Positions 2,786 through 52,261 of a stretch of 64,000 nucleotides of DNA are shown one piece after another. Every line of letters begins with the position of its first letter. The stretch's first letter is position 1. Where the stretch lies: sequence record OK283619.1, one strand, 5' to 3'. The position numbers were made by a program, and so were the translations under genes. The DNA is from Escherichia phage LPEK22. The notes under the pieces were generated by a model, which did not search any database, had not been told where the DNA came from, and saw only the letters and a list, made by a program, of their open reading frames with translations.

Positions 2786-3111
2786 AAGTCGTCCACTTCA
2801 AGAAGGAACCACACGACGTCTACATTGGCCGTCCTGGCAAATGGGGAAACCCGTTCGAGGTCAAAGACCACGGGCGGGGAAACTGTATTGAGTTGTTTGA
2901 AGACGACTTGTATGTGCGCCTGATTGAAGGGGATATCACCGAAGATGAACTCCTTGAATTAGATGGAAAGACCTTGGGATGCTGGTGTAAGCCGCGCCCA
3001 TGTCATGGAGATGTTTATGTCAAAGTGATCGGTCGTATTAAACTATTCCGTAAGTTGGGTAAATCTTTTACTGAATATTTGAGACAAACATATGTCAGAA
3101 GAGAAAGATGA
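2782..3111 (+). CDS. DUF4326-like protein
   Basis: Motifs GRPGKWGNPF and CWCKPRPCHGDV recalled as DUF4326 signature. Confidence 0.5.
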   Translation: MKVVHFKKEPHDVYIGRPGKWGNPFEVKDHGRGNCIELFEDDLYVRLIEGDITEDELLELDGKTLGCWCKPRPCHGDVYVKVIGRIKLFRKLGKSFTEYLRQTYVRRER

Positions 3112-3376
3112 AATTCAGATTGCTTGTGATATCGCTGTCGAGTTATGGAATCAGCGAAACAAACATTATCAGGTGACGTTGACCCCAAAGCGTTATCTAG
3201 AGCAAGGTGGCTTAATAGTCGTTGATGCCGTGTTAGGTTTCAACAAATATACTGACATGCAAATCTTGGACGGGAATTTCACTATTGCTTCCAATACAGC
3301 TTGGGATGATCCTATGGAATTTGTCTACGGTTGGTTGGAATGCATCGAGGAATCATACCATCTGATCTACGAATAA
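3092..3376 (+). CDS. hypothetical protein (94 aa)
   Basis: ORF overlapping upstream gene end by 20 nt; followed by terminator hairpin. Confidence 0.4.
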   Translation: MSEEKDEIQIACDIAVELWNQRNKHYQVTLTPKRYLEQGGLIVVDAVLGFNKYTDMQILDGNFTIASNTAWDDPMEFVYGWLECIEESYHLIYE

Positions 3377-3381
3377 GGTGA

Positions 3382-3414
3382 AGGGCACTAAATATCACGT
3401 GCCCTTTATCTTTT
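3382..3414 (+). terminator. rho-independent terminator-like hairpin
   Basis: AGGGCAC / GTGCCCT stem followed by TTATCTTTT. Confidence 0.5.
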
Positions 3415-3472
3415 AACCCTGTCAGGAGGCTCCAGCGAGCTGCAAGTCGACAAACACATAAGGAACGCCATC

Positions 3473-4090
3473 ATGACGATGACAACGTTGAAGGCCATGG
3501 CCTTGTCCGTGACCTTTACCATTGCCAGCGGGAGTGTGCACGCTTCCCAAAGTACCACCCAATGTGATTACGAATTTTCTGATCAACAACTTTCAACCAT
3601 GGCCACAGCCTATCACATAGGCAAACAACAAGACCTTGGTTTCACCCTCGCCGCGATATCATGGAGGGAAAGCCGCGCCGGAGAAGATGTTGTATCCATG
3701 CGGAATAACCTCAAATCGGCTAATATGGGGGCATTTCAAAATCGCGTCCAAACCGTCGGGAAACGGGAGGGATGCAAAACACAGAAGTGTTACGCCAATG
3801 TCGCGATCAAATTACTGGTCAATCAAGAGTACGCAGCCAATGCTGCCCTTGATGAAATGAATTTCTGGCTAGAATATCATAACCAAAACATCCGCAAATC
3901 CCTTTCCTCTTACAATGCCGGTTTCAGTCGTAACCAAAAATCCAATTCATACGCTGCTGATGTCGTGAAGAAGGCTAAATATCTTCAACGATGTGTGTCT
4001 TTCAAAGGCATGGCAATAAACCCAAAGGTCGACCCAGGAGTGATCGCCATGAATAAGCGCACGATTGAGAAACTCAAGAGGACCAGATAA
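3473..4090 (+). CDS. secreted lytic-transglycosylase-like (SLT domain) protein with N-terminal signal peptide
   Basis: Hydrophobic N-terminus ending ...VHASQ; SLT-like motifs WRESRAG (Glu-Ser), GAFQ, SYNAGFS. Confidence 0.5.
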   Translation: MTMTTLKAMALSVTFTIASGSVHASQSTTQCDYEFSDQQLSTMATAYHIGKQQDLGFTLAAISWRESRAGEDVVSMRNNLKSANMGAFQNRVQTVGKREGCKTQKCYANVAIKLLVNQEYAANAALDEMNFWLEYHNQNIRKSLSSYNAGFSRNQKSNSYAADVVKKAKYLQRCVSFKGMAINPKVDPGVIAMNKRTIEKLKRTR

Positions 4091-4728
4091 TGAATATCAC
4101 TCCATCTCAGACCGGATACGAGCACTTAATGGTGTTTATTGCGATTCAGGGGGCAAAAGAAGGCATCATTACTTCAGAATATTCCGGTACAATGCGCCTT
4201 GCGGATTATGTCGCGCCTGAAGCATTCATCAAGAAATGCATTGACGCTTGGTGCCTTTATGCGCTCGGCACGTATCCATCCCCTCCTGCTGGTGAGTTAT
4301 TGTTTACCATACCGACTCCGGCAACTGGTGACACAGACGCGATATTCGCTGATATGCTGTCAAAGGGTTATCTGACATATGACAGTGCTCACGGCGTGTA
4401 TGATTTTTCTGCGCTGAATCGTATCTTCGGATTCACCATAACTTCTGAAGCCAATATTCCTGATTATGGAATACTAGCATGGGGCGTCGACGGTTTGGGG
4501 GCAACATATGCATCTTCGGATGTCGGTCCTGTGTTGATAGACCCAGGGGTGACGATGGAGCAATACATGTCACAATTCCCTCAGCATAATGTTACCGGAA
4601 GCGACATCATTATTGTCTATCCTGGTTCTAATGCGTTGTCCCGCCTGGTGGACGGCTGGAAGCCTCAGCTGAAGGACATTGTCTCTGGAATCAGGTTCCA
4701 TATTCCCGTTGTCAATCCAACACCTTAA
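4090..4728 (+). CDS. hypothetical protein (212 aa)
   Basis: ORF, TAATG overlap with upstream gene. Confidence 0.5.
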   Translation: MNITPSQTGYEHLMVFIAIQGAKEGIITSEYSGTMRLADYVAPEAFIKKCIDAWCLYALGTYPSPPAGELLFTIPTPATGDTDAIFADMLSKGYLTYDSAHGVYDFSALNRIFGFTITSEANIPDYGILAWGVDGLGATYASSDVGPVLIDPGVTMEQYMSQFPQHNVTGSDIIIVYPGSNALSRLVDGWKPQLKDIVSGIRFHIPVVNPTP

Positions 4729-4742
4729 AATATTCAATAAAA

Positions 4743-4760
4743 GGGGCAAAAGCCCCTTTA
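4743..4760 (+). terminator. terminator hairpin merging into promoter -35
   Basis: GGGGC-AAAA-GCCCC followed by TTTAC. Confidence 0.5.
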
Positions 4761-4784
4761 CTTCTTCAATAACCCACGTATAAT
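4757..4784 (+). promoter_or_regulatory. sigma70-like early promoter TTTAC-N17-TATAAT
   Basis: TTTAC (about 4757) and TATAAT (about 4779), then conserved leader before ATG 4833. Confidence 0.5.
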
Positions 4785-4832
4785 TCTAAACATAAGCAGT
4801 ACGACACCAACTTGAAAAGCAGGAACTACATT

Positions 4833-5108
4833 ATGAAAATCATCCTCGACGCATATATCCGTTACGGCAGCAAATGGTTGATGGCCAAAGTTTACGACGG
4901 TGAAGAATTAGTCCACGCCCAAACCGCCCCTTCTGAACAATTGCGTGAAATTATGAAACGCGATTTTCCTACTGCTGAAATGATTGAACCTGCCAACCAA
5001 ACCGAAGTTGACAAAGAATGGGAACGCGAATGGAGTCCGGCGGCGTTGGCACAATTTGATAAGAATTACAACAATCGCCAAAACGCGTCTCGCCCGTTCC
5101 GTCGTTAA
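4833..5108 (+). CDS. hypothetical small protein; start placed at ATG after conserved leader AGCAGGAACTACATTATG
   Basis: Downstream of terminator-promoter cassette; AGGA Shine-Dalgarno 8 nt upstream. Confidence 0.5.
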   Translation: MKIILDAYIRYGSKWLMAKVYDGEELVHAQTAPSEQLREIMKRDFPTAEMIEPANQTEVDKEWEREWSPAALAQFDKNYNNRQNASRPFRR

Positions 5109-5186
5109 GAATAAAGGGGTGTTAGCATCCCTTTCTTTTCGCTAATTAAGGGAAACCGCACCGATTTTATAATCAGGAGAATTACA

Positions 5187-7568
5187 ATGGCCATCCCATC
5201 TTTCTTGAACTTTCTTGAAGAGTCTAAACAATTAGACGAAGCGTTTAACTCATCCCCGTATGAATTGACATTCGGCAAGAAGAACGCTGGCGACATTTTC
5301 TTCACATTTGTTGATGAAGACGAAAAAGAATTCCGCATCCAATTTTATACCCCGCAGGGGCTGGGCAAGAACGTTCGTCAGGTCTTCATAGGCCAGAAAC
5401 GTGGTTCGACCTATCCAGACGCAATCGGTCGTTTCAAAAACCCAATGCGTGTCATCGCATCCATGATCGAAGCAACAAAGCAATTCATGGCGACGCCTTT
5501 GGGGAAAACCATTGACGGCTTTGCAATTAACTTCTCCAAGAAAGCATTGGAACGTGGTGTTACCCTCCTGCCGAAGATCATCCGTCAGTCCGGCCTGAAG
5601 CAGAAGCTCAATGTCATGGACCTGACGTATACCCCTATCCCTGATCGTGCATTCGTATGGGTTGTGCGTAAAGGTAAGGATCCTGCTCAGGTATTCGATG
5701 GTCCGAAAATGAAAGGCGTGACTTGGGACGACCCAGACAAAGTCGGTGACGTTCCTGACCAGAAAAATAATCCTGATGTGGGTGTATCATCTTCTGTTGA
5801 TGATTCCAACGGCTGGAAATTAACTTCAGACGGGAATCAGCCTATGATGATATGGAGTGGTAGAGAGAAAGGTCGCTTAGTCACGGCAAATATCGCCCCT
5901 CACTACAATGAGCCTGGTGTGTATGTTGGTGCCTACATGAATGAGAAATCTGTGCGCGGACAAAGTGCTGATTTTATTGCTCGTCAGTTGAAATTACCGC
6001 AAGTCCCTATCAGTATCCTGAATGATTTTACCACGGCGTCCACAAAATTCTGGAAAGGTTCTCAACAGAAATCTGCGCCTGTAGATTCCAACACCACAAT
6101 CGGTGCAACCAGCATCGAACAACTGATCGACAGCGGTTTCGTCGCCCGTGTGTTGGGTATCATTGATACCAACATTGATCAGAAAGCAAGCTACCTCCCA
6201 GGAGAAAGCATTAAGAAAATCGGACAGGCGCGTTATCAAACCAAAGGCGGTCTAGTGATCATTGTCAGCTTCGATTCGGTCGACGGTAAGAATCTGAAGT
6301 ACAGCGTGTTCTCTGAGATCGAAACTCAACCTGGTGTCATCTCTGGTGATGCTCGTCGGGTGGCAAACGAAGTCATGGAAACCATCACATACGTGGCTGA
6401 ACATCAGTATCGCGGTGAATGGGAAATCAACGCAGTGCCGATGAGCGCTCCATACCCTATCAAGTCCATCCGTCATTCTCGGGGCTGGGGCTATGTAGAG
6501 ACCGCAAATTGGACTCTGAAAATAGCCGATGCGGTTCTGAATCGCGTGAAACCAGGGAATACCGCTCTGTTGGAACTCAACAAAGAGCCTCTGCGCGGCA
6601 AGCACCTTCTGGAAATCATTCCAGAGAAGGGCGACAAGACTCTGATGCTAAAAGATCGCAGCGGAGCCATCTACGGTTCCATTGATCTGAATGCTCAGGG
6701 TGCGGATCTGGTCAACTCCGGAACCCTGAAAATCCCGAGCAACGCCATGGTATTTGGTGAGACTGTTAATGGTATGTCTGTCACATGGACTGGCGTCAAT
6801 TTCCCGAAAGGCGGGAAGTATGACGGCGCGGTGTTGACAACTAATGTGACCTATTACTACGACAAAGGTAAAGTAGCATTCACTCCGATGGTCTCTAACA
6901 AAGGTCGCACCCTGAACAATCCGAAAACATATGAACTTCCTTTGAAGAAAGAATTTGTTCAAGGTGTTCTTGATGATACCTCTGACGAGATGAGTATGGT
7001 GACGAGGAACATGCAGACCCTCGTCAGCACGAATTACAACCCGAAACAAGTCTTCCTCAATGATATCTACGTGGACGACAGCGGCGCGGTGCTCTGGCGC
7101 GGCCACAACATGGGTGATCGCCGTACGACAGAGATCATGCTAAACGCCATAAGCAAAGAAACCGAACGTCTGGAAAAAGAACCAGGGACTACCAAGAAGA
7201 CGGGTGTCGACCTCGCAACATATGCTGGTTCTATCCGCGACAATGCTCCGAAAGGGCGCGATCTGGATTGGCAGATCTATGCAAGCCGTGATGGTCAAAC
7301 ACTGAACGTGGACTGGGATATCACTTTCCGTCGCAATACGACCGAAGGAGCATATCGTGAATTCAAGGATCAGATCAACCGTGCCAACCAATACCTGCAA
7401 ACGGTATACAACGACGCGAAATCTAAAGGCTATAATCCTACCGTGCCAAATCTCATGACTCTTGAACGCGCTCGCCAATCCGACGAATGGGCTGTGAGTA
7501 ATGGTGATAGTGCATACAGTGAATATGAACAATCGCTGGGTGGTAATCTTCAGATTAGTCTGAAATAA
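5187..7568 (+). CDS. large hypothetical protein (793 aa)
   Basis: Long ORF with AGGAGA SD; no motif recognised. Confidence 0.6.
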   Translation: MAIPSFLNFLEESKQLDEAFNSSPYELTFGKKNAGDIFFTFVDEDEKEFRIQFYTPQGLGKNVRQVFIGQKRGSTYPDAIGRFKNPMRVIASMIEATKQFMATPLGKTIDGFAINFSKKALERGVTLLPKIIRQSGLKQKLNVMDLTYTPIPDRAFVWVVRKGKDPAQVFDGPKMKGVTWDDPDKVGDVPDQKNNPDVGVSSSVDDSNGWKLTSDGNQPMMIWSGREKGRLVTANIAPHYNEPGVYVGAYMNEKSVRGQSADFIARQLKLPQVPISILNDFTTASTKFWKGSQQKSAPVDSNTTIGATSIEQLIDSGFVARVLGIIDTNIDQKASYLPGESIKKIGQARYQTKGGLVIIVSFDSVDGKNLKYSVFSEIETQPGVISGDARRVANEVMETITYVAEHQYRGEWEINAVPMSAPYPIKSIRHSRGWGYVETANWTLKIADAVLNRVKPGNTALLELNKEPLRGKHLLEIIPEKGDKTLMLKDRSGAIYGSIDLNAQGADLVNSGTLKIPSNAMVFGETVNGMSVTWTGVNFPKGGKYDGAVLTTNVTYYYDKGKVAFTPMVSNKGRTLNNPKTYELPLKKEFVQGVLDDTSDEMSMVTRNMQTLVSTNYNPKQVFLNDIYVDDSGAVLWRGHNMGDRRTTEIMLNAISKETERLEKEPGTTKKTGVDLATYAGSIRDNAPKGRDLDWQIYASRDGQTLNVDWDITFRRNTTEGAYREFKDQINRANQYLQTVYNDAKSKGYNPTVPNLMTLERARQSDEWAVSNGDSAYSEYEQSLGGNLQISLK

Positions 7569-7619
7569 GTCATAGCCCCTTCGGGGGCTAAATACATCAA
7601 AATCCTTAGGAGATCCACG

Positions 7620-8189
7620 ATGAAACCGTTTATCGAATATTTTAAAGAACAAGCTCAACAACCGCAAACTCATGGCGGCATACAAGGCAAAAGTGTAACC
7701 ATCACCAAACAGGCCGACGGAACCCAATGGTGTACTGGTGCCACCGTGACCCAGATCACTCCAGATAATCAGGCCGACATCTATAATCTGGAATTGACTA
7801 ACGGCAACACCACCAAAGTAAAACTCACACCGGACCAGGTTCATGCGGTTTCTGTGGGCAAAGATGTTGTTGCCGTTCATGACGGTTTTGAGTTCTTCTT
7901 TGGGAAAGATGCCAGCAAAGGTCAGGTCACAGAATCCTATGCCCAAGAATTGGCGAACATGGATAAGATGATCGGTAAAGCGCTGGGCGTTGGCAAATCT
8001 CGTAAAAGCGGTCGTACAGAGTTTGAATATTCCGGTATTCCTGGTATTGGAAAACCTGTCGCAATCGACTTCGGCGGAGAAGACGATCCATATGTAATTG
8101 TCACAGTCGCTGGCAAACAGCATGACATCAGTAAGGGGAAAACCCTAGCTGCGGACATTGCCAAATATATTGGCGTTAAACCTGTCTAA
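7620..8189 (+). CDS. hypothetical protein (189 aa)
   Basis: ORF with SD TAGGAGA. Confidence 0.55.
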   Translation: MKPFIEYFKEQAQQPQTHGGIQGKSVTITKQADGTQWCTGATVTQITPDNQADIYNLELTNGNTTKVKLTPDQVHAVSVGKDVVAVHDGFEFFFGKDASKGQVTESYAQELANMDKMIGKALGVGKSRKSGRTEFEYSGIPGIGKPVAIDFGGEDDPYVIVTVAGKQHDISKGKTLAADIAKYIGVKPV

Positions 8190-8198
8190 GGAGGTTGT

Positions 8199-8441
8199 AT
8201 GAAAGGATTCCAGGACTTCCTCTTGAAGGAAGCAAAGGTTGACCATCGCCGCCTTGGGCAGCAGGGCATGTACGACATCACGGATGTTGGTCGTCCAACC
8301 AAAGGCGAGCTGATCGATTACTACAATCGCAACGGTGATAAGCGGCAGGGGAAAGTGAAGTCCGTGAACGCGCAAGACATCATGACCCTGACAGACACCG
8401 ACACGGGTGAAACCGTCAAGATGACTCTGGTCAAGCCGTGA
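8199..8441 (+). CDS. hypothetical protein (80 aa)
   Basis: ORF with SD AGGAGG; terminator hairpin follows. Confidence 0.5.
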   Translation: MKGFQDFLLKEAKVDHRRLGQQGMYDITDVGRPTKGELIDYYNRNGDKRQGKVKSVNAQDIMTLTDTDTGETVKMTLVKP

Positions 8442-27768: not shown

Positions 27769-28515
27769 ATGTCACAGCTACACCGTATTTTTGGTATTGA
27801 ATTCAGTTCTAATTGCGTTCGTTATGATCGCACTCATAAAGATTCGGGTGGTAAAACCGGATATGAACTCGGTAGCCAGTTGGGATATTCCAGGGAACAA
27901 TTGTTCAATCAATACAGGCTGAATGAAACGGATCTTCTTAGGGTTATGGGCATTGAACTTGATTCCGAAGCCAGCTTGGATCTGGGCGACGAAATTCGTT
28001 TTGGTAAACCAGAAGCATTGGAATTCATTGAAGATTTCGTTTCTGGTTATACCCAAGCCGCTACGAACCGCCGCGCTGCTAATGATGCAGTGGGTAAATT
28101 CTACTTTGCGGCGAAATATCTTGCCGACAAACGTATACAGATGGAAGCCGAATTCAGTAAAGAAAATCTGAAAGCAGTTTTCGGCGAAGAAGGCGATTTC
28201 CGTTTAATGCCAGAATCTGGCACTGAATCAGCTCGTGATTTCTTTGAAAAACCATTTGTGGTCAAAGGTTGTAAAATTCTTACCGACGAAGACCACGCTT
28301 TCGCAATCCATACTGAAGTCGTTTACAATGAAGAGAATTGCCTTGTTATTTCCAGATTGTTCAACAGTCTGTCATATACAGCGTATTCTTTGATTGAACG
28401 TTGTATGGAAGAAGAGCATCGTCAGGTGGTGGTGAACAAAATTCGCTTACACGTTGAGCAGAATTTTAACGGGTTTGGTTGTGAATCCGGCGAAATCCCT
28501 AATTTCTATCTGTAG
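27769..28515 (+). CDS. hypothetical protein (248 aa)
   Basis: ORF with GAGG SD preceded by hairpin. Confidence 0.5.
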   Translation: MSQLHRIFGIEFSSNCVRYDRTHKDSGGKTGYELGSQLGYSREQLFNQYRLNETDLLRVMGIELDSEASLDLGDEIRFGKPEALEFIEDFVSGYTQAATNRRAANDAVGKFYFAAKYLADKRIQMEAEFSKENLKAVFGEEGDFRLMPESGTESARDFFEKPFVVKGCKILTDEDHAFAIHTEVVYNEENCLVISRLFNSLSYTAYSLIERCMEEEHRQVVVNKIRLHVEQNFNGFGCESGEIPNFYL

Positions 28516-28532
28516 CACAAGCAGGGGGCTGT

Positions 28533-28820
28533 ATGAAGAAATATGTTCGCCTGAACACGGTACTGGAATCTGTAATCGAATATTTCATAATGCAGCACCT
28601 CAGAGCAGAAAATGATCATGTGAGCGATGCTTTGACTTATGACCACCGGATAGTGGTTCATTCCGTCGAAATAGTGGACGACGAATTGTTGATTGCCAAC
28701 ATAGAACATGCTCTCTGGGACGAAGTTTTGGACCAGTATGTTCAACCCAAATTCACACAAATCGAGTTGTCTGCCATGTGGCCACCTGAAACAGTTTTCA
28801 ATATTGATATACAAAGTTAA
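28533..28820 (+). CDS. hypothetical protein (95 aa)
   Basis: ORF with AGGGGG SD. Confidence 0.4.
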   Translation: MKKYVRLNTVLESVIEYFIMQHLRAENDHVSDALTYDHRIVVHSVEIVDDELLIANIEHALWDEVLDQYVQPKFTQIELSAMWPPETVFNIDIQS

Positions 28821-28898
28821 TATTCACGCCAGTCCGCGCTGATACAGCGTTCCGTTGTCTAACACAGAAGTGTTAACCAACTTTTCAATAAAAAGTGG

Positions 28899-28926
28899 TT
28901 TACATCTTCTAAAAAGGCAGTATATT
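28899..28926 (+). promoter_or_regulatory. sigma70-like promoter TTTAC-N17-TATATT
   Basis: Preceded by TTCAATAAAAA box; upstream of gene 28994. Confidence 0.45.
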
Positions 28927-28993
28927 AATGTTCCAGACGCACAGTTGAACATTAGACTGCCAAAGAAGGTTACTACACAAAAGGGTTTTTATT

Positions 28994-29953
28994 ATGTCCT
29001 ATATTCTTCATATCGAGTCCGGCCTGAAATTTGAAATTGATGGTAAAACCGCTGCTGATCTTCAAGCAGAAATCAAAGGTGCAGACCTTATCATCGGCAA
29101 CGTCACGTTACGCCGTATGATGGAAGGCGTCCTCCAGTCAGCCAATGGCTTTGAACTCATCGAAGGTCTGAGCCAGGAAGAGAAAGAAGAGACTCTCGAA
29201 GCTCTTGACCGCGCTGAAGCCGAAAAAGTTAAACCGACCGAAGATGCGGGGGTTAAACAGGGCGACGGTGAATCAAATCCGGTGATTGACGCCGAAGAAA
29301 CGGTTGGGCAACCTGTCGGTGATCAAAATTCCCAGACCGTCGAAGACGGTTCTCTTGAAGTCAACAAAGACGGTTCCATTTCCCTGGTAGTTGAAGGCGA
29401 AGAAGTTCTTGACGAAGAAGCGCAAGCCCGTGCTGAAGAAGTTCGCCGTCGTATGCTGGGCACAACCGTTGCTGAAGCAATCGCCGACGTTGAAAATCCG
29501 AAGGATGATCAGGCTTTAGCGAACGCGAAGGCGGTTCTGGCCAAGAAATCTTCTGAAATGCGCCCTGCATCTTCTACCGAAGAACGCAAGCGTCGTCATA
29601 ACAAGCGTGAAGAAATGGTTGAAGCGGCTCGCGCATCCAATTATGGTCCTATCCTGGCTGCGGTTGAATCAGGGGTTGTGCCTGGGGTTTATTTGAGCTA
29701 TGTGAATCCGGATATGCGCTGGTTCCAGTTCCCTGTTACCGAACTGGCAGATGAAGCCAATCCACACGCCCGCACCAATACTTATGTTGATCTGGCGCCA
29801 ATCGTTTCCGGCGGCTGGGGGTTCAGTCTGTATGTGAATGGTAAATCATTCACCAAACGCCAGAAAATCAAAGAAACCGATGCCGAATCTCTGGTGAAAG
29901 CAATCAATGAATGGTTGCCTCAGGCGTTGGCCGAAGCGAAAGCTGCTGCGTAA
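28994..29953 (+). CDS. acidic hypothetical protein (319 aa)
   Basis: ORF downstream of TTTAC-N17-TATATT promoter; Glu/Asp-rich central region. Confidence 0.5.
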   Translation: MSYILHIESGLKFEIDGKTAADLQAEIKGADLIIGNVTLRRMMEGVLQSANGFELIEGLSQEEKEETLEALDRAEAEKVKPTEDAGVKQGDGESNPVIDAEETVGQPVGDQNSQTVEDGSLEVNKDGSISLVVEGEEVLDEEAQARAEEVRRRMLGTTVAEAIADVENPKDDQALANAKAVLAKKSSEMRPASSTEERKRRHNKREEMVEAARASNYGPILAAVESGVVPGVYLSYVNPDMRWFQFPVTELADEANPHARTNTYVDLAPIVSGGWGFSLYVNGKSFTKRQKIKETDAESLVKAINEWLPQALAEAKAAA

Positions 29954-29974
29954 TTTAATTCAGAAGCGTTCAAT

Positions 29975-30008
29975 AGATAAAGGGGCTGCTATAATAGCAG
30001 CTCCTTTT
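29975..30008 (+). terminator. hairpin with TATAAT in loop, terminator-like
   Basis: GCTGCT-ATAAT-AGCAGC followed by TCCTTTTGTTTG. Confidence 0.45.
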
Positions 30009-30010
30009 GT

Positions 30011-30688
30011 TTGTTGGAGCATGTCATGTCTTATTCGCTCAAAGGGCTGTTGAAGCGCCCTGTGCATTTGTTTGTCAAACCACCTGCTGTAGAAGGGGAA
30101 TATTCGGCACGAGGAGAGTTGTATTACATTAAAGGCTCCAATGGTAGTGGTAAGTCTACTGTGCCTTCTTATTTGGCGGAGAATGATCCTCAGGCGTATG
30201 TCGTAACCCATAACAGTAAGATCATGCTCACGGTTTGTCCATCTTACAATATTGTCTGTGTCGGTAAATATGACAAGTCTAAGTCCAAAGGGGTTGATTC
30301 TCTGAAGGATACTGAGCAGATGTTGTTCGCGTTGTCTATTGCTGACCAACCAGAATACCTGAAATATGATGTGATTTTCGAAGGCATCATTCCGTCTACA
30401 TTATTGAGTTCTTGGATTCCCCGCCTGACACGCCCACCACGTGAATTGGTCGTCCTCTTTATGGATACCCCTCTTGAAACCTGTATTGCCCGTGTTAAAT
30501 CGCGTAACGGTGGCGCAGACTTCAATGAAAGTCTGGTGGTCGAGAAGTGGGAGAGAGTTCATGATCACCGTCAACGGCATAAAGGCTTGTTCCCTACCGT
30601 TCCCGCAGGTATGATGAAGTCCGATGGCCTGACTGTAGAGCAGGCTGTTTTTGCGTTTCTCAATCGTGATTTTGGGAGTATTTATTGA
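30011..30688 (+). CDS. P-loop NTPase, putative nucleotide or nucleic-acid kinase
   Basis: Walker A GSNGSGKST; first gene of ATGA-coupled operon with TS-fold enzyme and dNMP kinase; start may be 30011 or 30026. Confidence 0.55.
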   Translation: MLEHVMSYSLKGLLKRPVHLFVKPPAVEGEYSARGELYYIKGSNGSGKSTVPSYLAENDPQAYVVTHNSKIMLTVCPSYNIVCVGKYDKSKSKGVDSLKDTEQMLFALSIADQPEYLKYDVIFEGIIPSTLLSSWIPRLTRPPRELVVLFMDTPLETCIARVKSRNGGADFNESLVVEKWERVHDHRQRHKGLFPTVPAGMMKSDGLTVEQAVFAFLNRDFGSIY

Positions 30689-31734
30689 TGGAAATCAAAG
30701 CAATTAACAACAACGACATGCTGAAACAGGCTGTCTTGGCTATCCGTGAGCACGGGATTGAATCTGACCCTGGTAACGCGGAGATCAACACAGACGGCAC
30801 TCGTTTTATTGATGGCGTGACGATCACCGTCTCTGACATCCGCGACCGTTGGCTGTCTGTTGAAGGACGCAACTCATCGGCTATTGCTGCCATCGGCGAG
30901 ACCTTCTGGGTTCTGTCTGGGCGCGATGATGTGCGCTTCTTGTCCCGTGTCCTCCCTCGCGCCGCCAACTTCTCTGATAATGGCCATACATGGCGAGCCG
31001 CTTATGGTCCGCGTCTGTACGCCCATGGCCAGCTGGATAGCGTTATCAACCGCCTACGCAAGAACCCAAATACTCGTCAAGCGTACCTCACCATCTATGA
31101 TCCGGCTCTAGATTCGGATGCTGGTCTGGCGAAGTTCAGCGAGAGCGGCGAAGCAAAGACTAAGGACATGGTGTGTAACCTGGCTCTGTTGTTCGCCATC
31201 GTTGAAGGTCGTCTGAACCTGACGGTCATCAACCGCTCACAGGATGTTCTGTGGGGGATGAGTTCAATCAACTTCATTGAGTTCTCTATTCTTCAGGAAG
31301 TGATTGCTCAGGTGTTAGATGTTGATGTCGGTCAGTACAAGCTATTCTCTAACAATCTTCATTACTACAACAATGAAGTCAGCCAGAAGCAGCTTGGCAA
31401 GATCACCAAAGACACAAAAGTCACTGGTGGTTTCATCAACTCCATGATCTACTTCACGAACGTGACCAACCAGAACCATATCCGCAATCTGTTCACTGGT
31501 GTGCTTCATCACTGTGATATCGGCAGCCCGTGGGAAACTGTTGTCGCTCACCTGAAGGAGTACGGCGCGGATCGCGGCCTGATCGTGCAGATGGCGTACT
31601 GCCTGTACTGCAAACTGAACGACAAGCTCATCAACATGAACCTGATTCAGGATCATGGTTTGAACATCGCGCTCGCTCATTCTCCGATTGACCGCAAGAT
31701 CGTTGATCCCAAGTTCTTGGAAGGTGCAGTATGA
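30685..31734 (+). CDS. thymidylate-synthase-superfamily enzyme, divergent: putative pyrimidine (dUMP/dCMP) hydroxymethylase
   Basis: Collinear with TS / dCMP hydroxymethylase core as recalled: ETFWVLSG, NPNTRQAYLTIYDP (versus NPxSRR..SAWNP), Cys in DMVCNLALLF (versus PCH), RSQDVLWGMSSINFIEFS (versus RSxDxxLGxPFNIASY); 349 aa with N-terminal extension. Confidence 0.65.
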   Translation: MMEIKAINNNDMLKQAVLAIREHGIESDPGNAEINTDGTRFIDGVTITVSDIRDRWLSVEGRNSSAIAAIGETFWVLSGRDDVRFLSRVLPRAANFSDNGHTWRAAYGPRLYAHGQLDSVINRLRKNPNTRQAYLTIYDPALDSDAGLAKFSESGEAKTKDMVCNLALLFAIVEGRLNLTVINRSQDVLWGMSSINFIEFSILQEVIAQVLDVDVGQYKLFSNNLHYYNNEVSQKQLGKITKDTKVTGGFINSMIYFTNVTNQNHIRNLFTGVLHHCDIGSPWETVVAHLKEYGADRGLIVQMAYCLYCKLNDKLINMNLIQDHGLNIALAHSPIDRKIVDPKFLEGAV

Positions 31735-32300
31735 TGTATCCGAACCTTGAATTCTTTACGGGGCGCAAGCGCTCCGGCAAGGACTTCTGTTTGGAGTCCC
31801 TCATCAGCTATCACCATTTACAGGGTGATATGGACATCCAGCGCTTATCTTTCTCGGACGAGTTGCGTCGGGTGGCTCATTACATCTATCCTTGGTTGCC
31901 AGAGGAAGTAGAGGACGATATCAAGGACTTGCCATATGTTCACCCAGATAACCCCAAGGGATTAACCCCAAGGCAGATCTGGCTTCATCTCGGCAGCGAT
32001 ACGGGGCTTCGTTATGTCCAACCGGATCTGTTTTTGTCTTTCTTTAAGCGTTACCAACTCCCATTAGTTGAACAGAATCCTAACATTCATTATATTGTGA
32101 GTGATCTACGGACGCCTCAAGAATATGAATGGGCGCTGAGCACTAAATGTCCCATCACCCGCATTTCAAAGGCAGATCGCGGCGGTATCATAGAGGACGA
32201 CATAGAGGCTTTCATTGATGAGATGAAAGTTGATTATGAATTTGTTAACCCATTTGAAGGTTGGCAACCATTCGTCAAATTTTATAGGGAACGGAAATGA
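31731..32300 (+). CDS. deoxynucleoside monophosphate kinase (T4 gp1-like)
   Basis: P-loop FFTGRKRSGKDF (T4 gp1 recalled as FLSGVKRSGKDT) and IVSDLRTPQEYE. Confidence 0.65.
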   Translation: MMYPNLEFFTGRKRSGKDFCLESLISYHHLQGDMDIQRLSFSDELRRVAHYIYPWLPEEVEDDIKDLPYVHPDNPKGLTPRQIWLHLGSDTGLRYVQPDLFLSFFKRYQLPLVEQNPNIHYIVSDLRTPQEYEWALSTKCPITRISKADRGGIIEDDIEAFIDEMKVDYEFVNPFEGWQPFVKFYRERK

Positions 32301-32848
32301 TCACAGCAGAGCATATCAAAAGTCTGCTCGAACTTCAAAAGGCCACCAACGTGGCCTATTTTGGGGAAGAGTGGCGTAAACATTGGACTCATGTGGCGGT
32401 GGTGAACTCCATCTATCGTGAGTGGGCAGAGTTTCTTGACGAAACAACCCAGGACTGGAAAATCTATGGCGGTGGGATACAATATGACCGAGAAGCAGCT
32501 GTCTACGAATTGGTGGACGTGGTACATTTTATGTTGTCTTCCATTTTATCTGGATTTGGTTCTGCTTTCCCAGTTGAAATGCAGATTGACCTTTTCTTCA
32601 AGGACGGACGAGTGATAGACAAATCGGCCAATCTGGAATCGGTCACAGAATGTTTTACGTCATTTATGGTTCAACCAGATGTTATCCGTTTTGTGCGGTT
32701 TTTATCAAAGGCTTGTGGTTATTTGGATCTGGACACCGAAACCTATATGCTGGCCCACAAGCGCAAGAACGATCGCAATCGTCTACGTGCTGCTGGCGGT
32801 GCGAACTATGACAAGTCTGCCGAAACCCCTCTGACTCTGGAGTTCTAA
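32297..32848 (+). CDS. all-alpha NTP pyrophosphatase (T4 gp56 dCTPase/dUTPase-like)
   Basis: Acidic motifs EEWRKHWTH, EWAEFLDE, ELVDVVHFML resembling dimeric dUTPase/dCTPase family. Confidence 0.5.
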   Translation: MITAEHIKSLLELQKATNVAYFGEEWRKHWTHVAVVNSIYREWAEFLDETTQDWKIYGGGIQYDREAAVYELVDVVHFMLSSILSGFGSAFPVEMQIDLFFKDGRVIDKSANLESVTECFTSFMVQPDVIRFVRFLSKACGYLDLDTETYMLAHKRKNDRNRLRAAGGANYDKSAETPLTLEF

Positions 32849-33378
32849 TGTTTACAGTTGTCGTATCATATTATGCGGAACATGCCCCGTACATGGCAGA
32901 GAACTTCGCTGAGTTTATTAAACCAGGCGGTCATGTCGTTATTGCGACCAATTTCAAGAAAGAGCCAGATGGTGCGGCTACTGTAACACAACATATTACA
33001 ACCAAAGAGCCGGAAACACTTTTTAAACGCATTGAAGATTTTGCTTTTGGCGGGGAAGAAATTCCAGAGTCATTACAGCATATCTATTTTGAAGATGCGA
33101 TATATTATGTTCATGCTATTCCAAAGGATGTTACAACTGAACAAATGATGTATATCCTGAATATCGCATTGAATGTTTCTTGTGTCAACAGGGCACAGCA
33201 CAATCGTCTGCGTAATATGTATTTAACAGAACGCGGGGGTTCCGAAATTAACGATGAAAAACTCCCGTCAATAATGGCGATTCACGAAGCAATCAATATA
33301 TTGTCCAAGAAAGTCTTGGGCACCGATTTATTAATTACGATCAACAAGCAAGAGGAAACGAAATGGCCGATTCATTGA
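32848..33378 (+). CDS. hypothetical protein (176 aa)
   Basis: ORF coupled within nucleotide-metabolism operon. Confidence 0.45.
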   Translation: MFTVVVSYYAEHAPYMAENFAEFIKPGGHVVIATNFKKEPDGAATVTQHITTKEPETLFKRIEDFAFGGEEIPESLQHIYFEDAIYYVHAIPKDVTTEQMMYILNIALNVSCVNRAQHNRLRNMYLTERGGSEINDEKLPSIMAIHEAINILSKKVLGTDLLITINKQEETKWPIH

Positions 33379-34448
33379 TGGCTCGCATGCTCAAGACAGC
33401 AAAGAAACTGGACCCGAATGCCGAAGTGCTGTCAAAGACCGATGCGCTGAAGCCTGACATTATTTGCAGTACGGGTATTCCTATTCTGAATTTGGCCTGG
33501 TCCGGTCGTATTGATGGTGGTCTGATATCAGGCATCAAACAGTTGGTGGGGGATTCTCGTACATTCAAAACCATGTTTGGGCTGGTGGATGTTAAGGCTT
33601 ACATGGATAAGTTTCCTGATGCAATTTGTATCTTCGCGGATTCAGAAGGCGGTGCGAATGAAAACTACTGGACATCTATGGGTATTGACATGGACCGTGT
33701 CTTGTATCTGCCGATTGAAAACGTTGAAAAGACGAAGATCAAGCTGACACAGCTTCTGAACGATGCACAGAAAGGTGACAAGATCATCGTATTCATTGAC
33801 TCAATCAGCCAGTTGCCGTCTACCAAAGAAGTTGATGATGCCATAGCGGGCAAAGACACACAAGATATGACCCGCGCTCGCGCTCTCAATAGTTTTTGGC
33901 GTGTTATCACCCCGTTGGTCACTGAAAAGAAATTCGTTTTGGTATGGATCAACTCGTACTATGATGAAATCGGGAACCAATACGCCGAGCCGAACATCAA
34001 AGGCGGTAAACAGGGGTTCCTGTCTTCTAACCAATTGTGGTTCATCACGCGTTCTCAAGTTAAAGAAGACAAAGACCTTTTGGGATGGCAGTTTACAGTC
34101 AACATTATGAAAGGCCGCTTTGTCCGTGAAAAAGCCAAGTTCCCTGTCACTGTGTTGTATGAAGGCGGTATTGACCGTTGGTCCGGTATGTTAGAAATTG
34201 CGCGCATGCTGGGGTATGTGGATTTGGTGAGTGGCTCTTGGTATCAACGCACTGCCAAAGGCGGGTTTGATCCAGAAAAAGAAAAGAAATATCGTAAGGC
34301 AGAGCTGGGGGATGACTTCTGGTATCCGCTGCTGGAAAACCCAGACTTTGTTGACGATGTGAACAACATGTTCGGTATCTCTCAGAGTTCGGTTATGCCT
34401 GCAGATATGCTGGAGCGCCTCGATAATGTCATCAAAACAACCGAGTAA
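33363..34448 (+). CDS. uvsX: UvsX recombinase (RecA-like)
   Basis: Collinear with T4 UvsX as recalled: ILNLAWSGRIDGG, GDSRTFKTMFGL, VFIDSISQLPSTKEVDDA, DMTRARALNSFWR, GGIDRWSGMLE. Confidence 0.85.
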   Translation: MADSLMARMLKTAKKLDPNAEVLSKTDALKPDIICSTGIPILNLAWSGRIDGGLISGIKQLVGDSRTFKTMFGLVDVKAYMDKFPDAICIFADSEGGANENYWTSMGIDMDRVLYLPIENVEKTKIKLTQLLNDAQKGDKIIVFIDSISQLPSTKEVDDAIAGKDTQDMTRARALNSFWRVITPLVTEKKFVLVWINSYYDEIGNQYAEPNIKGGKQGFLSSNQLWFITRSQVKEDKDLLGWQFTVNIMKGRFVREKAKFPVTVLYEGGIDRWSGMLEIARMLGYVDLVSGSWYQRTAKGGFDPEKEKKYRKAELGDDFWYPLLENPDFVDDVNNMFGISQSSVMPADMLERLDNVIKTTE

Positions 34449-34755
34449 TATTGCAGGGGGAGGAGACTCCCCCGTTAATTACAAAATCATCGACCCTGGT
34501 TCTGATCAGTTAGCAATAATCGAAATAACGGAAGGCAAATTCCGTGGCGTTCAATTTCGTATAGGGAAAGTGGGTGTCCATTTAGATAATGGAGAGCCTC
34601 GGTTATCCTTTACAACAGATATATTGAAGAAACCATGGCGTTTGTTATTTGTTAATTTGAAAGAAAATGACTTGTTCACTGTGGTGTCTGGGGATATCTT
34701 AGTTGATCTGATACAGCAAAATGCTCAGGATTACAACAAAATTTTGGTGGGGTAG
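34426..34755 (+). CDS. hypothetical protein (109 aa) between uvsX and helicase gene
   Basis: ORF. Confidence 0.45.
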   Translation: MSSKQPSNIAGGGDSPVNYKIIDPGSDQLAIIEITEGKFRGVQFRIGKVGVHLDNGEPRLSFTTDILKKPWRLLFVNLKENDLFTVVSGDILVDLIQQNAQDYNKILVG

Positions 34756-36186
34756 TTGCCAATGTTACTCGAATCTGTCGTGCTTTCCCAATTAATCTAT
34801 AACGAAGAATATCAAAGAAAGATCCAGCCGTATTTGAAAGCCGATTATTTCGATAACGAAGGCGAGAAAATTATATTCGGTCTCATTGACCATTACACTT
34901 GCGAATATAATGCTCGTCCTTCGGTTGAAGCGTTGTCTATTATGCTGGAAAAGACTTCGCTCAACGAACACGTATTTGAACAAGCTATTTCTGCTCTTGA
35001 GAATATCAATGACAACACATTCCATCAGGAATGGCTTGTAAAAGAAACAGAAAGTTGGGCGCGGCAGAAAGCTGTTCATAATGCGATCAAACACGCCGTC
35101 AACATCTATGGTGATGAGAAACGTAAAGATGAGATGAACACGATTCCAACTCTCCTACAAGAGGCGTTGGCGATAAGTTTTGATTCTTATCTTGGCCATA
35201 TCTATTGGGAAATGGCTGAACAACAATACGACCACATGAACTCTAATGAAGCGAAGATTCCTTTCGCTGTAGAGATATTCAACAAAGCGACTCGTGGTGG
35301 TGTTGGTAAGAAAACGCTGAACATCGTGACGGGTGCAATTAATGCGGGTAAGACAACAACTCTGATTGATTTGGCTGCTGGTTACTCCGAGCAAGGGTTG
35401 AACGTATTCGTATTCACCCTAGAAGTGGCTGAGAACGTCTGGCGTCACCGCCTTGATGCCCGTATGATGCGCAGGGACTTCGAGTCCTTAGAGAAGCTCT
35501 CACGACATGAATATGTCGCCACGATACAAAAGTTGCGAACTCGTCAAGACGGTTCCATGAAGGGTGATATTGTTATCAAGGAATATCCTTCAGGCGCTGG
35601 GCATACAGGACTATATCGCCGCGATATCCTTGATTATGCGACATCCACGGGAATTACGCCGGACGTCATTATTATAGACTACTTGGGTGAATCAGCGTCT
35701 TCTCGCCTTCCTGCCCATTTAATGCAGAACACCAACGTGTATTATACGTCGGTGGCGCGTGAATTCCGTGCGCTTGGATTTGAATTTGATTGCCCTGTAT
35801 GGACAGGTATGCAATTTAACCGTGAAAAACAATCGGCGACTGATGGTGATATTAGCGACCTGGCAGATGCTATCGGTATTCCGAAGGTTGCAGACTTCAT
35901 CATGGCGTTCTATGCCCCTGATGAACTGGCGGCTGTTAAGAAAGCCCGAGCGTCTATCTTGAAAAACCGTTATGCCAATAAACAGAAACTCAAATCGTTC
36001 TTGTTCGGTATGGATCAAGATAAACAGATATTGTTTGACTTGGATTGGAATGAAGTCAAGCGAGACCTGACAGAAGAGGAAGCCCGTTATGTTGAGAATG
36101 TTCATATCAAACATGACTTAAACAAAACAGGCGACGTAAATGATGTCAAGAAAGCCGAGACCGTGAATAATTGGAATTTCGGTTAA
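34756..36186 (+). CDS. replicative DNA helicase (T4 gp41, DnaB-like)
   Basis: Walker A GAINAGKTT; EWLVKETE and ALAISFDSYLGH parallel T4 gp41 as recalled; 476 aa. Confidence 0.85.
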   Translation: MPMLLESVVLSQLIYNEEYQRKIQPYLKADYFDNEGEKIIFGLIDHYTCEYNARPSVEALSIMLEKTSLNEHVFEQAISALENINDNTFHQEWLVKETESWARQKAVHNAIKHAVNIYGDEKRKDEMNTIPTLLQEALAISFDSYLGHIYWEMAEQQYDHMNSNEAKIPFAVEIFNKATRGGVGKKTLNIVTGAINAGKTTTLIDLAAGYSEQGLNVFVFTLEVAENVWRHRLDARMMRRDFESLEKLSRHEYVATIQKLRTRQDGSMKGDIVIKEYPSGAGHTGLYRRDILDYATSTGITPDVIIIDYLGESASSRLPAHLMQNTNVYYTSVAREFRALGFEFDCPVWTGMQFNREKQSATDGDISDLADAIGIPKVADFIMAFYAPDELAAVKKARASILKNRYANKQKLKSFLFGMDQDKQILFDLDWNEVKRDLTEEEARYVENVHIKHDLNKTGDVNDVKKAETVNNWNFG

Positions 36187-47458: not shown

Positions 47459-48079
47459 ATGGCTATGTATTTGCAGGGGAAGTATGTTCCCGTAAATCCC
47501 AAGAAATATAAAGGCGACGTGAACAAAATAGTATTTCGTTCTTCGCTAGAACTTGTCGCCTTTAAATTTTGTGATATGAATCCTGCTATCGTCTATTGGT
47601 CTTCAGAAGAAACTGTAATCCCTTACATATCTCCGGTTGATGGCCGCGCCCATCGTTATTTCATGGATTTGAAGGTTTGGACTCGTCGGCAGGATTCCGA
47701 TGAATTACAAATTACTCTTATTGAAATAAAACCCAAAGACCAGATTAAAGAACCTCGCAAAACTAAAACGATGAAGGAATCAACATTCAATAATTCAATG
47801 CGCACTTGGTTGGTAAATCAGGCAAAGTGGACAGCAACTAAAGAACATTGTGCAAAGGTGGGTTGGAAATTCATTATCTGGACAGAAGAACATTTGGTGC
47901 CAGGTGAAGACCCAGAAGTTAAAAAACAATTTGCTCTTCGTTCTAAGAAAAAGCGCGAAGTCGAAATGGAAGATCGACGCCGCGCTCAAAGGATTAATGC
48001 GTTGAAAGAGCAAATGAAGAAGGAAACTGCTAATAAACAACCAACGCAATCGGAAGATGATGGTTTGTTATTACCCTGA
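47459..48079 (+). CDS. head completion protein (T4 gp4 family, PD-(D/E)xK-like)
   Basis: KYKGDVNKIVFRSSLEL...WSSEETVIPYISPVDGRAHRYFMD...LIEIKPKDQ matches recalled gp4-family signature. Confidence 0.55.
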   Translation: MAMYLQGKYVPVNPKKYKGDVNKIVFRSSLELVAFKFCDMNPAIVYWSSEETVIPYISPVDGRAHRYFMDLKVWTRRQDSDELQITLIEIKPKDQIKEPRKTKTMKESTFNNSMRTWLVNQAKWTATKEHCAKVGWKFIIWTEEHLVPGEDPEVKKQFALRSKKKREVEMEDRRRAQRINALKEQMKKETANKQPTQSEDDGLLLP

Positions 48080-48698: not shown

Positions 48699-49226
48699 TT
48701 AATTCCTTACTTTGTCTGGGTTGGATAAGATTTGTTCGTATCCGACTTCGCCTTGATCGTCGAAAACGTGTTTAAGGATCGCCATATCGTCTACCATCCG
48801 ATAAACTTCAATTCCAGCGTTCATCAATTTTTTGATTCCATCCATGATACGATATGGCTCTTGATAATATACTTTATCGATCTTGCCGTTGTCGATGATC
48901 TTCTGAGTGCAATCAGGGCATGGGCTATGTGTCACAAACATAACCAACCCTGTGAAATCATCTGCATTTTCGGGGATACGCATTAGAGCATTTTCCTCCG
49001 CATGAATGACACACGGGTTTGTAACAATTTGCCCGTGTTGTTCCATCTCACAAACATTCGGCATGCCAGGAGGCGTTCCGTTCCATCCGATAGCCACAGG
49101 CTGATCAGTTTCAGGGTTTACGATAACACAACCGACTTGCAGACGCCGAGCATAACTGGTTACACCATATGCTGCAGCTGATCGCATATGGGCGAACATC
49201 ATACGTGGTTTAATCATTTTTAACAC
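48699..49226 (-). CDS. dCMP deaminase
   Basis: Zinc-binding HAEENAL and SPCPDC motifs. Confidence 0.8.
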   Translation of the reverse strand: MLKMIKPRMMFAHMRSAAAYGVTSYARRLQVGCVIVNPETDQPVAIGWNGTPPGMPNVCEMEQHGQIVTNPCVIHAEENALMRIPENADDFTGLVMFVTHSPCPDCTQKIIDNGKIDKVYYQEPYRIMDGIKKLMNAGIEVYRMVDDMAILKHVFDDQGEVGYEQILSNPDKVRN

Positions 49227-51598: not shown

Positions 51599-52261
51599 CT
51601 ATGATAACTCATGGCGATGTCGAACACACGCAGGGCAATCACAATTCTTTTTCAAAATTGGCAATTCACACCATGTCATTAAGTCATGTATTGGGGACAT
51701 GTGATGATAGAACCAAGATTTCTTGAGACTAATCAATGGATATAAAATTTCAATAGGTCTTTCCCCGTCTCTGGTCATCATGTTGTACCCTTCAATGACT
51801 TTATTAAAGGCGGGTATCCAGTGTATTGCGTCATCGCCGTTAACATATGCCAATATATACGTGGAAGGCAAGCTCCTGCCTTTAAATTGCGTGTTTAATA
51901 ACCATATCGGGGCTTGTGCTAAACAAGAGCGAAAACCACCGTTCGGGACGTTGATGCTACTGATAGGTTCTTGATGATGTGTCCAACGATACATGAGAAG
52001 TGGGGCATTTTTATTAATCCAGTTGTGTATTTTATTCCTCGCCCAATTTTCGCGCTTAGATTTAAATTTATTATTTTCGAGGTGGCAATACACAGTATGA
52101 ACTGAATATCCTTTCGATAACAACCAAATCAACATGTATGTGCTATCCACCCCACCAGACCAGAACAACGTCACTTCTTGATTATTCTCCGGTAATGGAG
52201 CATCCCCTTGAAGAACACGGTATACAAAATCACAATCAGATATTGAGACAACAATTTCCAT
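51599..52261 (-). CDS. QueC-like PP-loop ATPase (7-cyano-7-deazaguanine synthase family) with divergent active-site region
   Basis: PP-loop FWSGGVDST; C-terminal Cys cluster WCELPILKKNCDCPAC parallels QueC zinc site as recalled; central GVCETDFSGYPDCR-equivalent region replaced. Confidence 0.6.
   Translation of the reverse strand: MEIVVSISDCDFVYRVLQGDAPLPENNQEVTLFWSGGVDSTYMLIWLLSKGYSVHTVYCHLENNKFKSKRENWARNKIHNWINKNAPLLMYRWTHHQEPISSINVPNGGFRSCLAQAPIWLLNTQFKGRSLPSTYILAYVNGDDAIHWIPAFNKVIEGYNMMTRDGERPIEILYPLISLKKSWFYHHMSPIHDLMTWCELPILKKNCDCPACVRHRHELS

Follow-up and report, generated by a model that had tools for sequence, protein, structure and literature searches.

A thymidylate synthase-like gene of Escherichia phage LPEK22 very probably encodes the Kuttervirus dUMP 5-hydroxymethyltransferase

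A gene of the thymidylate synthase (ThyA) superfamily lies in a 64,000-nucleotide stretch of DNA from Escherichia phage LPEK22 (sequence record OK283619.1), which we analyzed as a whole and refer to as the window. We find it very likely that this gene encodes the Kuttervirus folate-dependent deoxyuridine monophosphate (dUMP) 5-hydroxymethyltransferase, a member of that superfamily. The open reading frame (ORF) is confirmed at 30685..31734 (+). Its TTG at 30685 is no more than a mechanical start, and translation likely begins from the ATG at 30688, giving 348 amino acids (aa) rather than the 349 counted from 30685 in an earlier, sequence-only reading of this DNA. We prefer the ATG because it overlaps the TGA of the upstream gene by one base (TGATG at 30686-30690), is suitably spaced from a GGGAG ribosome-binding site and is equivalent to the start of all annotated homologues, each of which gives 348 aa. 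At its other end, the stop codon overlaps the start of the next gene as ATGA. The gene and the features within and just before it are as follows.

30674..30678, + strand: GGGAG ribosome-binding site, nine bases 5' of the ATG at 30688, read from the sequence.
30688..31734, + strand: predicted dUMP 5-hydroxymethyltransferase gene, 348 aa plus stop, by homology to CBA120 orf073 and ViI Vi01_060c.
30688..31392, + strand: catalytic thymidylate synthase-fold core, aa 1-235, from PF00303, the AlphaFold2 model and the ThyA structure alignment.
30898..30900, + strand: Glu71, equivalent to E. coli E58, present in 53/53 relatives.
31063..31104, + strand: NPNTRQAYLTIYDP, in which R130 corresponds to E. 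coli R126 and Q131 replaces R127.
31165..31176, + strand: D160-M-V-C163, with Cys163 the predicted catalytic nucleophile and Asp160 at the E. coli L143 position.
31234..31275, + strand: RSQDVLWGMSSINF loop, with R183, S184, D186 and N195 at the positions of E. coli R166, S167, D169 and N177.
31393..31731, + strand: C-terminal helical domain, aa 236-348 (113 aa), five helices predicted from the AlphaFold2 model.

The window belongs with DNA of the genus Kuttervirus (Ackermannviridae), being 99% identical over 24 kb to Salmonella phages vB_SalM-ps4, S117 and S8; its identity to Escherichia phage CBA120 is 98.8%. The protein itself is 100% identical to CBA120 orf073 (YP_004957758), which occupies the same slot beside the 5-hydroxymethyl-deoxyuridine (5-hmdU) DNA kinase gene, has the same proposed role and shows no difference of any kind; it is 77% identical to ViI Vi01_060c (annotated thyA; orf00066), which shares that slot and proposed role. 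The sequence-only reading had taken this for a possibly unusual enzyme, a suggestion at odds with the identity to orf073, which was proposed to be a dUMP hydroxymethylase in 2011 (PMC3184105). The closest tested enzyme is the SPO1 gp29 dUMP hydroxymethylase (33% identity over 221 aa, E=6e-32), biochemically characterized by Wilhelm & Rueger 1992, as cited in PMC8989533.

Membership of the thymidylate synthase / pyrimidine hydroxymethylase superfamily is not due to chance. PF00303 (Thymidylat_synt) is the sole Pfam family match (E=4e-16, aa 65-235) and scores above the curated cut-off, while a search of PDB sequences matched the hydroxymethylase MilA at E=5e-17 and ThyA proteins at about 1e-7 to 1e-9, with no dUMP hydroxymethylase among the matches in the April 2026 PDB copy. 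An AlphaFold2 model built on a 53-sequence alignment reached a predicted local distance difference test score (pLDDT) of 94 and a predicted template modeling score (pTM) of 0.93. With this model, Foldseek ranked MilA, a cytidine monophosphate (CMP) hydroxymethylase, first in the PDB, with 346 aligned columns and template modeling (TM) scores of 0.73/0.80; the superposition aligned 303 of the 318 MilA residues, C-terminal helical region included, and ThyA structures aligned over about 235-240 residues in about 240-270 columns. Both the PF00303 match and the MilA and ThyA fold matches uphold the thymidylate synthase-fold assignment of the sequence-only reading.

That reading had also described an N-terminal extension and a protein unusually long for its family, neither of which we recover. 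Counted between conserved anchors (the conserved Glu and the HxY motif), the protein exceeds E. coli ThyA by 13 residues before the Glu, 5 from the Glu to HxY and 66 after HxY (121 vs 55), and because these last make up 66 of the 84 extra residues, the added length is a C-terminal domain. It is long only by comparison with ThyA (264 aa) and T4 gp42 (246 aa); subfamily relatives span 323-398 aa and SPO1 gp29 has 383 aa. In the model, the 121 residues after HxY are folded into helices and do not match the tail with which ThyA seals its folate site at the C-terminus; the helical domain stands where ThyA has that tail. Searched alone, the domain matched no family in Pfam at E<=10 and none in PDB sequences; in MilA, five helices make up the C-terminal region (PMC5175136). 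Many actinophage and metagenome relatives reach 490-600 aa with a further C-terminal extension, and Pfam assigns no family to these fused extensions. Examples with an extra extension or fusion are P0050, P0065, P0070, P0073, P0089, P0113 and P0112, and in P0112 a nucleoside 2-deoxyribosyltransferase domain is fused N-terminal to the thymidylate synthase-like domain.

Residue equivalences to E. coli ThyA were taken from overall fold superposition and from a MAFFT alignment of the hydroxymethylase, E. coli ThyA (a sequence identical to PDB 1aob), SPO1 gp29, T4 gp42, the MilA fragment and family members, and conservation was counted over 53 relatives. The three motifs quoted in the sequence-only reading (NPNTRQAYLTIYDP, DMVCN and RSQDVLWGMSSINF) translate exactly as written at 31063-31104, 31165-31179 and 31234-31275. 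Seven residues, C163, E71, Y106, R183, D186, H225 and Y227 (E. coli C146, E58, Y94, R166, D169, H207 and Y209), are each present in 53/53 relatives. Asp160 precedes the Cys by three residues (Cys-3), takes the place of E. coli L143 and is Asp in 51/53 relatives and Glu in 1/53. Leu143 of ThyA is hydrophobic and serves in water exclusion. An Asp at this position has been proposed as a hydroxymethylase signature where ThyA has Leu (PMC6400193; restated in PMC13326640); in T4 deoxycytidine monophosphate (dCMP) hydroxymethylase that Asp activates a water for attack on the exocyclic methylene, and the D145N mutant has no activity (PMC6400193). The E58-type Glu acts as a general acid/base, protonating the cofactor by way of water (PMC6400193).

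Aligned with ThyA, T4 gp42 and SPO1 gp29, the protein has no canonical thymidylate synthase active site (D-M-V-C-N, Arg-Gln). The E. coli H147 position is Asn164, in line with PCN in SPO1 gp29, MCT in T4 gp42 and ACT in MilA. A hydroxymethylase rather than a methylating enzyme, as the sequence-only reading had argued, is what Asp160 at the L143 position, Asn164 at H147 and the missing ThyA tail indicate. Its supporting argument, that loss of the His and of an Arg pair marks hydroxymethylases, holds for the His, which is lost in every hydroxymethylase examined, and fails for the Arg pair, which is not diagnostic: T4 gp42 retains SRRG, and at the second position of the pair 28 of the 53 relatives have Q and 23 have R. 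The stronger published marker, the Asp at Cys-3 (PMC6400193, PMC13326640), was absent from that argument.

Base choice would be set by the RSQDVLWGMSSINF loop. The counterpart of E. coli N177 is N195, an Asn in 52/53 relatives; at this position Asn goes with uracil and Asp with cytosine (PMC5175136, PMC13326640), so the preference for uracil proposed earlier stands. The accompanying caution that the loop alignment might be off by one residue can be traced to a real one-residue insertion relative to ThyA, which SPO1 gp29 shares, with the Asn at D+9 in both, and the Asn assignment is unchanged by it. In our MAFFT alignment T4 D179 fell one column off N195, a shift that we judged an artefact of the same insertion, given that the Asn is placed consistently both in the rows for E. 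coli, SPO1 and MilA and in a HMMER alignment to a ThyA. An Asn at the D169 position marks flavin-dependent 5-hydroxy-dCMP synthases (PMC13326640), and D186 at that position indicates a folate-dependent rather than flavin-dependent enzyme. R130 and S184 are each conserved in 47/53 relatives. The E. coli counterpart of R130, R126, is a phosphate arginine donated by the partner subunit. MilA selects its ribonucleotide with K133 and A176 (PMC5175136), and R130 and S184 at these positions point to a deoxyribonucleotide preference. Because of these diagnostic residues taken together, dUMP, methylene-tetrahydrofolate and hydroxymethylation are indicated as substrate, cofactor and reaction. Homology, diagnostic residues, fold, gene context and identity to the CBA120 protein are direct observations, and from them we infer the catalytic activity of the LPEK22 protein.

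The assignment fits what has been published on these phages. CBA120 takes up no 3H-thymidine into its DNA, which is also without hydroxymethylcytosine, and its 'thymidylate synthase' orf073 was argued by Kutter 2011 to be a dUMP hydroxymethyltransferase (PMC3184105). In the DNA of ViI, CBA120, CBA6 and 1.255.O, a 301-Da nucleoside, 5-(2-aminoethoxy)methyl-deoxyuridine (5-NeOmdU), replaces about 40% of T, and the gene adjoining the 5-hmdU DNA kinase (5-HMUDK) gene was drawn as 'dU hmt' (Lee 2018, PMC5889632). 5-NeOmdU is made on 5-hmdU in DNA by a kinase, a serine:DNA transferase and a pyridoxal phosphate (PLP) decarboxylase (PMC8989533), and for another Ackermannviridae phage a 2026 preprint counts a dUMP hydroxymethyltransferase as one of the 5-NeOmdU genes (10.64898/2026.05.19.726188). 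Both enzyme and role are therefore already known (Kutter 2011; Lee 2018, 2021), and no new biology is learned here, because the step was predicted in 2011 and placed in a published pathway in 2018-2021.

Other assignments within the superfamily were weighed against this one, and the diagnostic residues together with the NCBIfam cut-offs led us to reject those to ThyA, to a dCMP or CMP hydroxymethylase and to a flavin-dependent C5-hydroxylase. It is very improbable that the gene encodes an ordinary thymidylate synthase making thymidine monophosphate (dTMP) for phage DNA, even though its only Pfam family carries that name, as do PHROG 3676 and most GenBank/RefSeq records, and about 60% of thymine positions are plain T in ViI-like DNA (PMC5889632). 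Residues 160 and 164 and the lost folate-sealing tail depart from ThyA; none of the seven NCBIfam thymidylate synthase equivalog models comes anywhere near its cut-off (19-57 bits vs cut-offs of 108-427, the best being 56.5 bits vs 327); tblastn with E. coli ThyA leaves the gene undetected even at E<=10; CBA120 excludes labelled thymidine (PMC3184105); and plain T in related phages is reported to come from 5-hmdU post-replication (PMC8989533). The mixture of T and 5-NeOmdU in virion DNA (PMC5889632) would also suit a dual-product enzyme that releases 5-hydroxymethyl-dUMP (5-hmdUMP) plus some dTMP to feed the plain T, the more so as no second thymidylate synthase gene lies within the window and Lee et al. 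2018 call the route from 5-hmdU to thymidine unknown. We give this idea even less credence than an ordinary synthase, as the sequence gives no sign of hydride transfer, both Asp160 at Cys-3 and the loss of the tail speak against it, the host possesses its own ThyA and labelled thymidine is kept out of CBA120 DNA (PMC3184105).

Ranked between those two, and still very doubtful, is a cytosine-nucleotide hydroxymethylase of the T4 gp42 (dCMP) or MilA (CMP) type. MilA is the best solved-structure match by both sequence and fold, the gene sits in the T4 gene 42 slot upstream of uvsX-40-41, and the Asp at Cys-3 is shared; against these stand Asn195, in 52/53 relatives, where cytosine enzymes have Asp (PMC5175136), Arg130 and Ser184 in place of the ribose-selecting Lys and Ala of MilA, CBA120 DNA without hydroxymethylcytosine (PMC3184105) and a protein nearer to SPO1 gp29 (E=6e-32). 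Least probable of all, to the point of being negligible, is a flavin-dependent pyrimidine C5-hydroxylase of the thymidylate synthase-fold 5-hydroxy-dCMP synthase type: the protein has a weak sequence match to 9iqc (RB69 gp48 / 9iqc type, E=3e-4), the diagnostic D169N is missing, with Asp186 in 53/53 (PMC13326640), the base selector is Asn rather than Asp, and the known modification of this phage has a one-carbon unit at C5 (PMC5889632).

Several points do count against a dUMP hydroxymethylase. Plain T fills most thymine positions of virion DNA (about 60% in ViI-like DNA, PMC5889632), and of the four arginines with which ThyA binds phosphate, two are substituted (R21 by Gly29, R127 by Gln131). 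Half of the T4 dCMP hydroxymethylase signature, Ser-x-Tyr, is missing, with Ala104-Ala105-Tyr106 in its place; it is likewise missing from SPO1 gp29 (Ala-Pro-Tyr). The residue equivalences depend on sequence alignment and overall fold superposition, and the searched literature yielded no enzyme assay of any Kuttervirus homologue, activity being assigned by homology and context.

With dUMP hydroxymethylation as the preferred reading, the chemistry can be sketched by homology with ThyA and T4 dCMP hydroxymethylase. Cys163 would attack C6 of dUMP, the methylene of 5,10-methylene-tetrahydrofolate, activated by Glu71, would pass to C5, and Tyr106 with a bound water would take the C5 proton to give an exocyclic methylene intermediate. 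No hydride would come from the cofactor; instead, Asp160-activated water would add to the methylene, yielding 5-hmdUMP and tetrahydrofolate. Uracil would be chosen by Asn195 and the deoxyribonucleotide by Arg130 with Ser184.

Set beside characterized enzymes, the protein most resembles SPO1 gp29, with which it has in common the TRQ and TKDxxCN motifs, the spacing of the base-loop Asn and a long C-terminal region (383 aa in total for gp29). SPO1 gp29 differs by an Arg where E. coli ThyA has R21 and by a Pro before the Cys; its C-terminal region is not alignable with that of the LPEK22 protein by BLAST, and SPO1 DNA retains 5-hmdU without further processing, unlike that of the 5-NeOmdU phages. 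Streptomyces MilA (PDB 5jnh, 5b6d) shares the C-terminal helical domain at the fold level with about 20% identity, and differs in having Asp186 where Asn195 is found here (cytosine vs uracil) and Lys133/Ala176 rather than Arg130/Ser184 (ribo vs deoxyribo) (PMC5175136). T4 gp42 has, as far as can be inferred, the same chemistry, with the water-activating Asp at Cys-3, no ThyA tail and the same syntenic slot, whereas it carries D179 at the base-selecting position and Ser-x-Tyr where our protein has Asn195 and Ala104-Ala105-Tyr106. E. coli ThyA, at about 19% identity, has the same fold, and its Cys, Glu58, Tyr94, Arg166, Asp169, Asn177, His207 and Tyr209 are kept; L143 is changed to Asp, H147 to Asn, R127 to Gln and R21 to Gly, and in place of its C-terminal tail there is an added 113-aa helical domain. 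The order hydroxymethylase ... uvsX, small ORF, gp41 helicase (30688-36186) parallels T4 gene 42 ... uvsX-40-41 (2613-8220), the gap before uvsX being filled in T4 by beta-glucosyltransferase and segA and here by a deoxynucleoside monophosphate (dNMP) kinase, a nucleoside triphosphate (NTP) pyrophosphohydrolase and an ACT-like protein.

The gene is part of a tightly packed block, 3' of a strong hairpin, whose start and stop codons overlap and which runs 5-hmdU DNA kinase, hydroxymethylase, dNMP kinase, NTP pyrophosphohydrolase, ACT-like protein, UvsX, a 109-aa ORF and gp41 helicase. The hydroxymethylase gene is predicted to be translationally coupled to the upstream 5-hmdU DNA kinase and to the downstream dNMP kinase and pyrophosphohydrolase genes. 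Features outside the hydroxymethylase gene that bear on its context are these.

29979..30007, + strand: hairpin with a 13-bp stem and T-rich tail, terminator-like, a consensus match only.
30026..30688, + strand: 5-hmdU DNA kinase (5-HMUDK), PF18748 (HMUDK_HMUD1) E=3e-113.
31731..32300, + strand: dNMP kinase-like gene, PHROG 139 E=8e-49.
32297..32848, + strand: dimeric-dUTPase-type NTP pyrophosphohydrolase, PF08761 E=2.5e-7 and PHROG 173 E=7e-38.
32848-33378, + strand: phage ACT-like protein, 176 aa, PF24021 E=3e-88, 95% identical to its ViI counterpart.
48699..49226, - strand: dCMP deaminase, PF00383 E=5e-17.

The hairpin separates a 319-aa ORF with no assigned function from the kinase gene and is a probable boundary of the block. 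The 5-HMUDK is the orthologue (95% identity) of ViI gp67 (YP_004327432), whose 5-hmdU DNA kinase activity was demonstrated on the purified protein (PMC8989533). RefSeq records of ViI, CBA120, SFP10 and FEC14 label this kinase 'terminase small subunit'; it matches PHROG 800 (E=9e-70), itself named terminase small subunit, and that name is probably the source of the mislabel. The dNMP kinase-like product presumably acts as a 5-hmdUMP kinase, and the pyrophosphohydrolase, by analogy with the dTTPase/dUTPase assayed in phage SH-Ab 15599 (PMC13458397), would be a dTTPase/dUTPase that clears competing thymidine triphosphate (dTTP). The 2011 CBA120 paper (PMC3184105) names orf070 dNMP kinase; by PHROG and Pfam the equivalent of orf072 (31731-32300) is the dNMP kinase and that of orf070 (32297-32848) the NTP pyrophosphohydrolase. 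The ACT-like gene is placed between the nucleotide-pool genes and uvsX. Elsewhere in the window, the dCMP deaminase would supply dUMP, and a ribonucleotide reductase is also encoded.

This gene set agrees with the published pre-replicative route of dCMP deaminase, dUMP hydroxymethylase, dNMP kinase and dTTPase/dUTPase (PMC8989533). Following the ViI scheme, the adjacent dNMP kinase and host NDP kinase would turn 5-hmdUMP into 5-hmdU triphosphate (5-hmdUTP) while the adjacent pyrophosphohydrolase removes dTTP and deoxyuridine triphosphate (dUTP), and the phage polymerase would then insert 5-hmdU into DNA. There, the 5-hmdU DNA kinase from the upstream gene would phosphorylate it, and enzymes encoded beyond the window would add serine and then decarboxylate it to 5-NeOmdU. 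No second thymidylate synthase-like gene was found in the window, where tblastn with the hydroxymethylase and with E. coli ThyA gave chance matches only and Pfam scans of 40 further ORFs gave none. For Kuttervirus more widely, the presence of a separate thyA or thyX was judged from the single tblastn place per record and the gene list of the CBA120 paper. A relative with 38% identity, on a 110-kb metagenomic contig, has as neighbors a dUTPase_2 gene, a P-loop (AAA_28) gene that may encode a kinase, a dCTP deaminase and a DNA polymerase. Two further ORFs of the window encode a 220-aa protein with weak PP-loop ATPase matches (51599-52261, -; QueC E=3e-5, ThiI E=1e-4) and a 206-aa protein with a TnsA-like endonuclease N-terminal domain (47459-48079, +; E=6e-17).

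Relative to ViI, the region 27769-36186 is patchy: the hydroxymethylase (77%), the NTP pyrophosphohydrolase (69%), UvsX (72%) and the ORF at 27769-28515 (79%) have diverged, and the genes interleaved with them are 91-99% identical. Within the hydroxymethylase, the core is 88% and the C-terminal domain 53% identical to Vi01_060c. Because of these unequal identities, the saturated synonymous sites and the 91-99% identical flanks, the pattern suggests whole-allele replacement by recombination among Kutterviruses and points to weaker constraint on the C-terminal domain than on the core. In the record of Enterobacter phage EspM4VN (Ackermannviridae) the gene is split, likely through frameshifts or sequencing errors, among three BFVD entries (A0A2Z6C8G1, A0A2Z6C8D3 and A0A2Z6C8B5) of 113, 88 and 53 aa that each match the query at 96-100% identity.

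A local peculiarity is seen at aa 29-40 (30772-30807), where Ackermannviridae have Gly at a position that is Arg in 28/53 relatives and in E. coli (R21), and a five-residue insert, D-G-T-R-F, with a conserved Arg39 is confined to the Ackermannviridae clade. This insert may be a compensating swap for the lost R21-type Arg. Two bolder ideas, both guesses drawn from alignment patterns that strike us as unlikely, are that the Ackermannviridae enzyme has a rebuilt phosphate site (Arg39 for R21) and, separately, that its fast-evolving C-terminal domain does more than aid folding and docks neighboring proteins; the docking partners could be the dNMP kinase, the pyrophosphohydrolase or the replisome. 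If true, docking would channel 5-hmdUMP, as the T4 dNTP-synthesizing complex does.

The practical value of these results is in annotation, since most database records still say 'thymidylate synthase', and E. coli positions 143, 169 and 177 suffice to assign the product class. As the dUMP hydroxymethyltransferase, the enzyme would catalyze the first committed step of the DNA hypermodification that shields ViI/CBA120-like phages against most type II restriction enzymes; several of these phages are in use, or have been proposed, for controlling Salmonella and E. coli O157.

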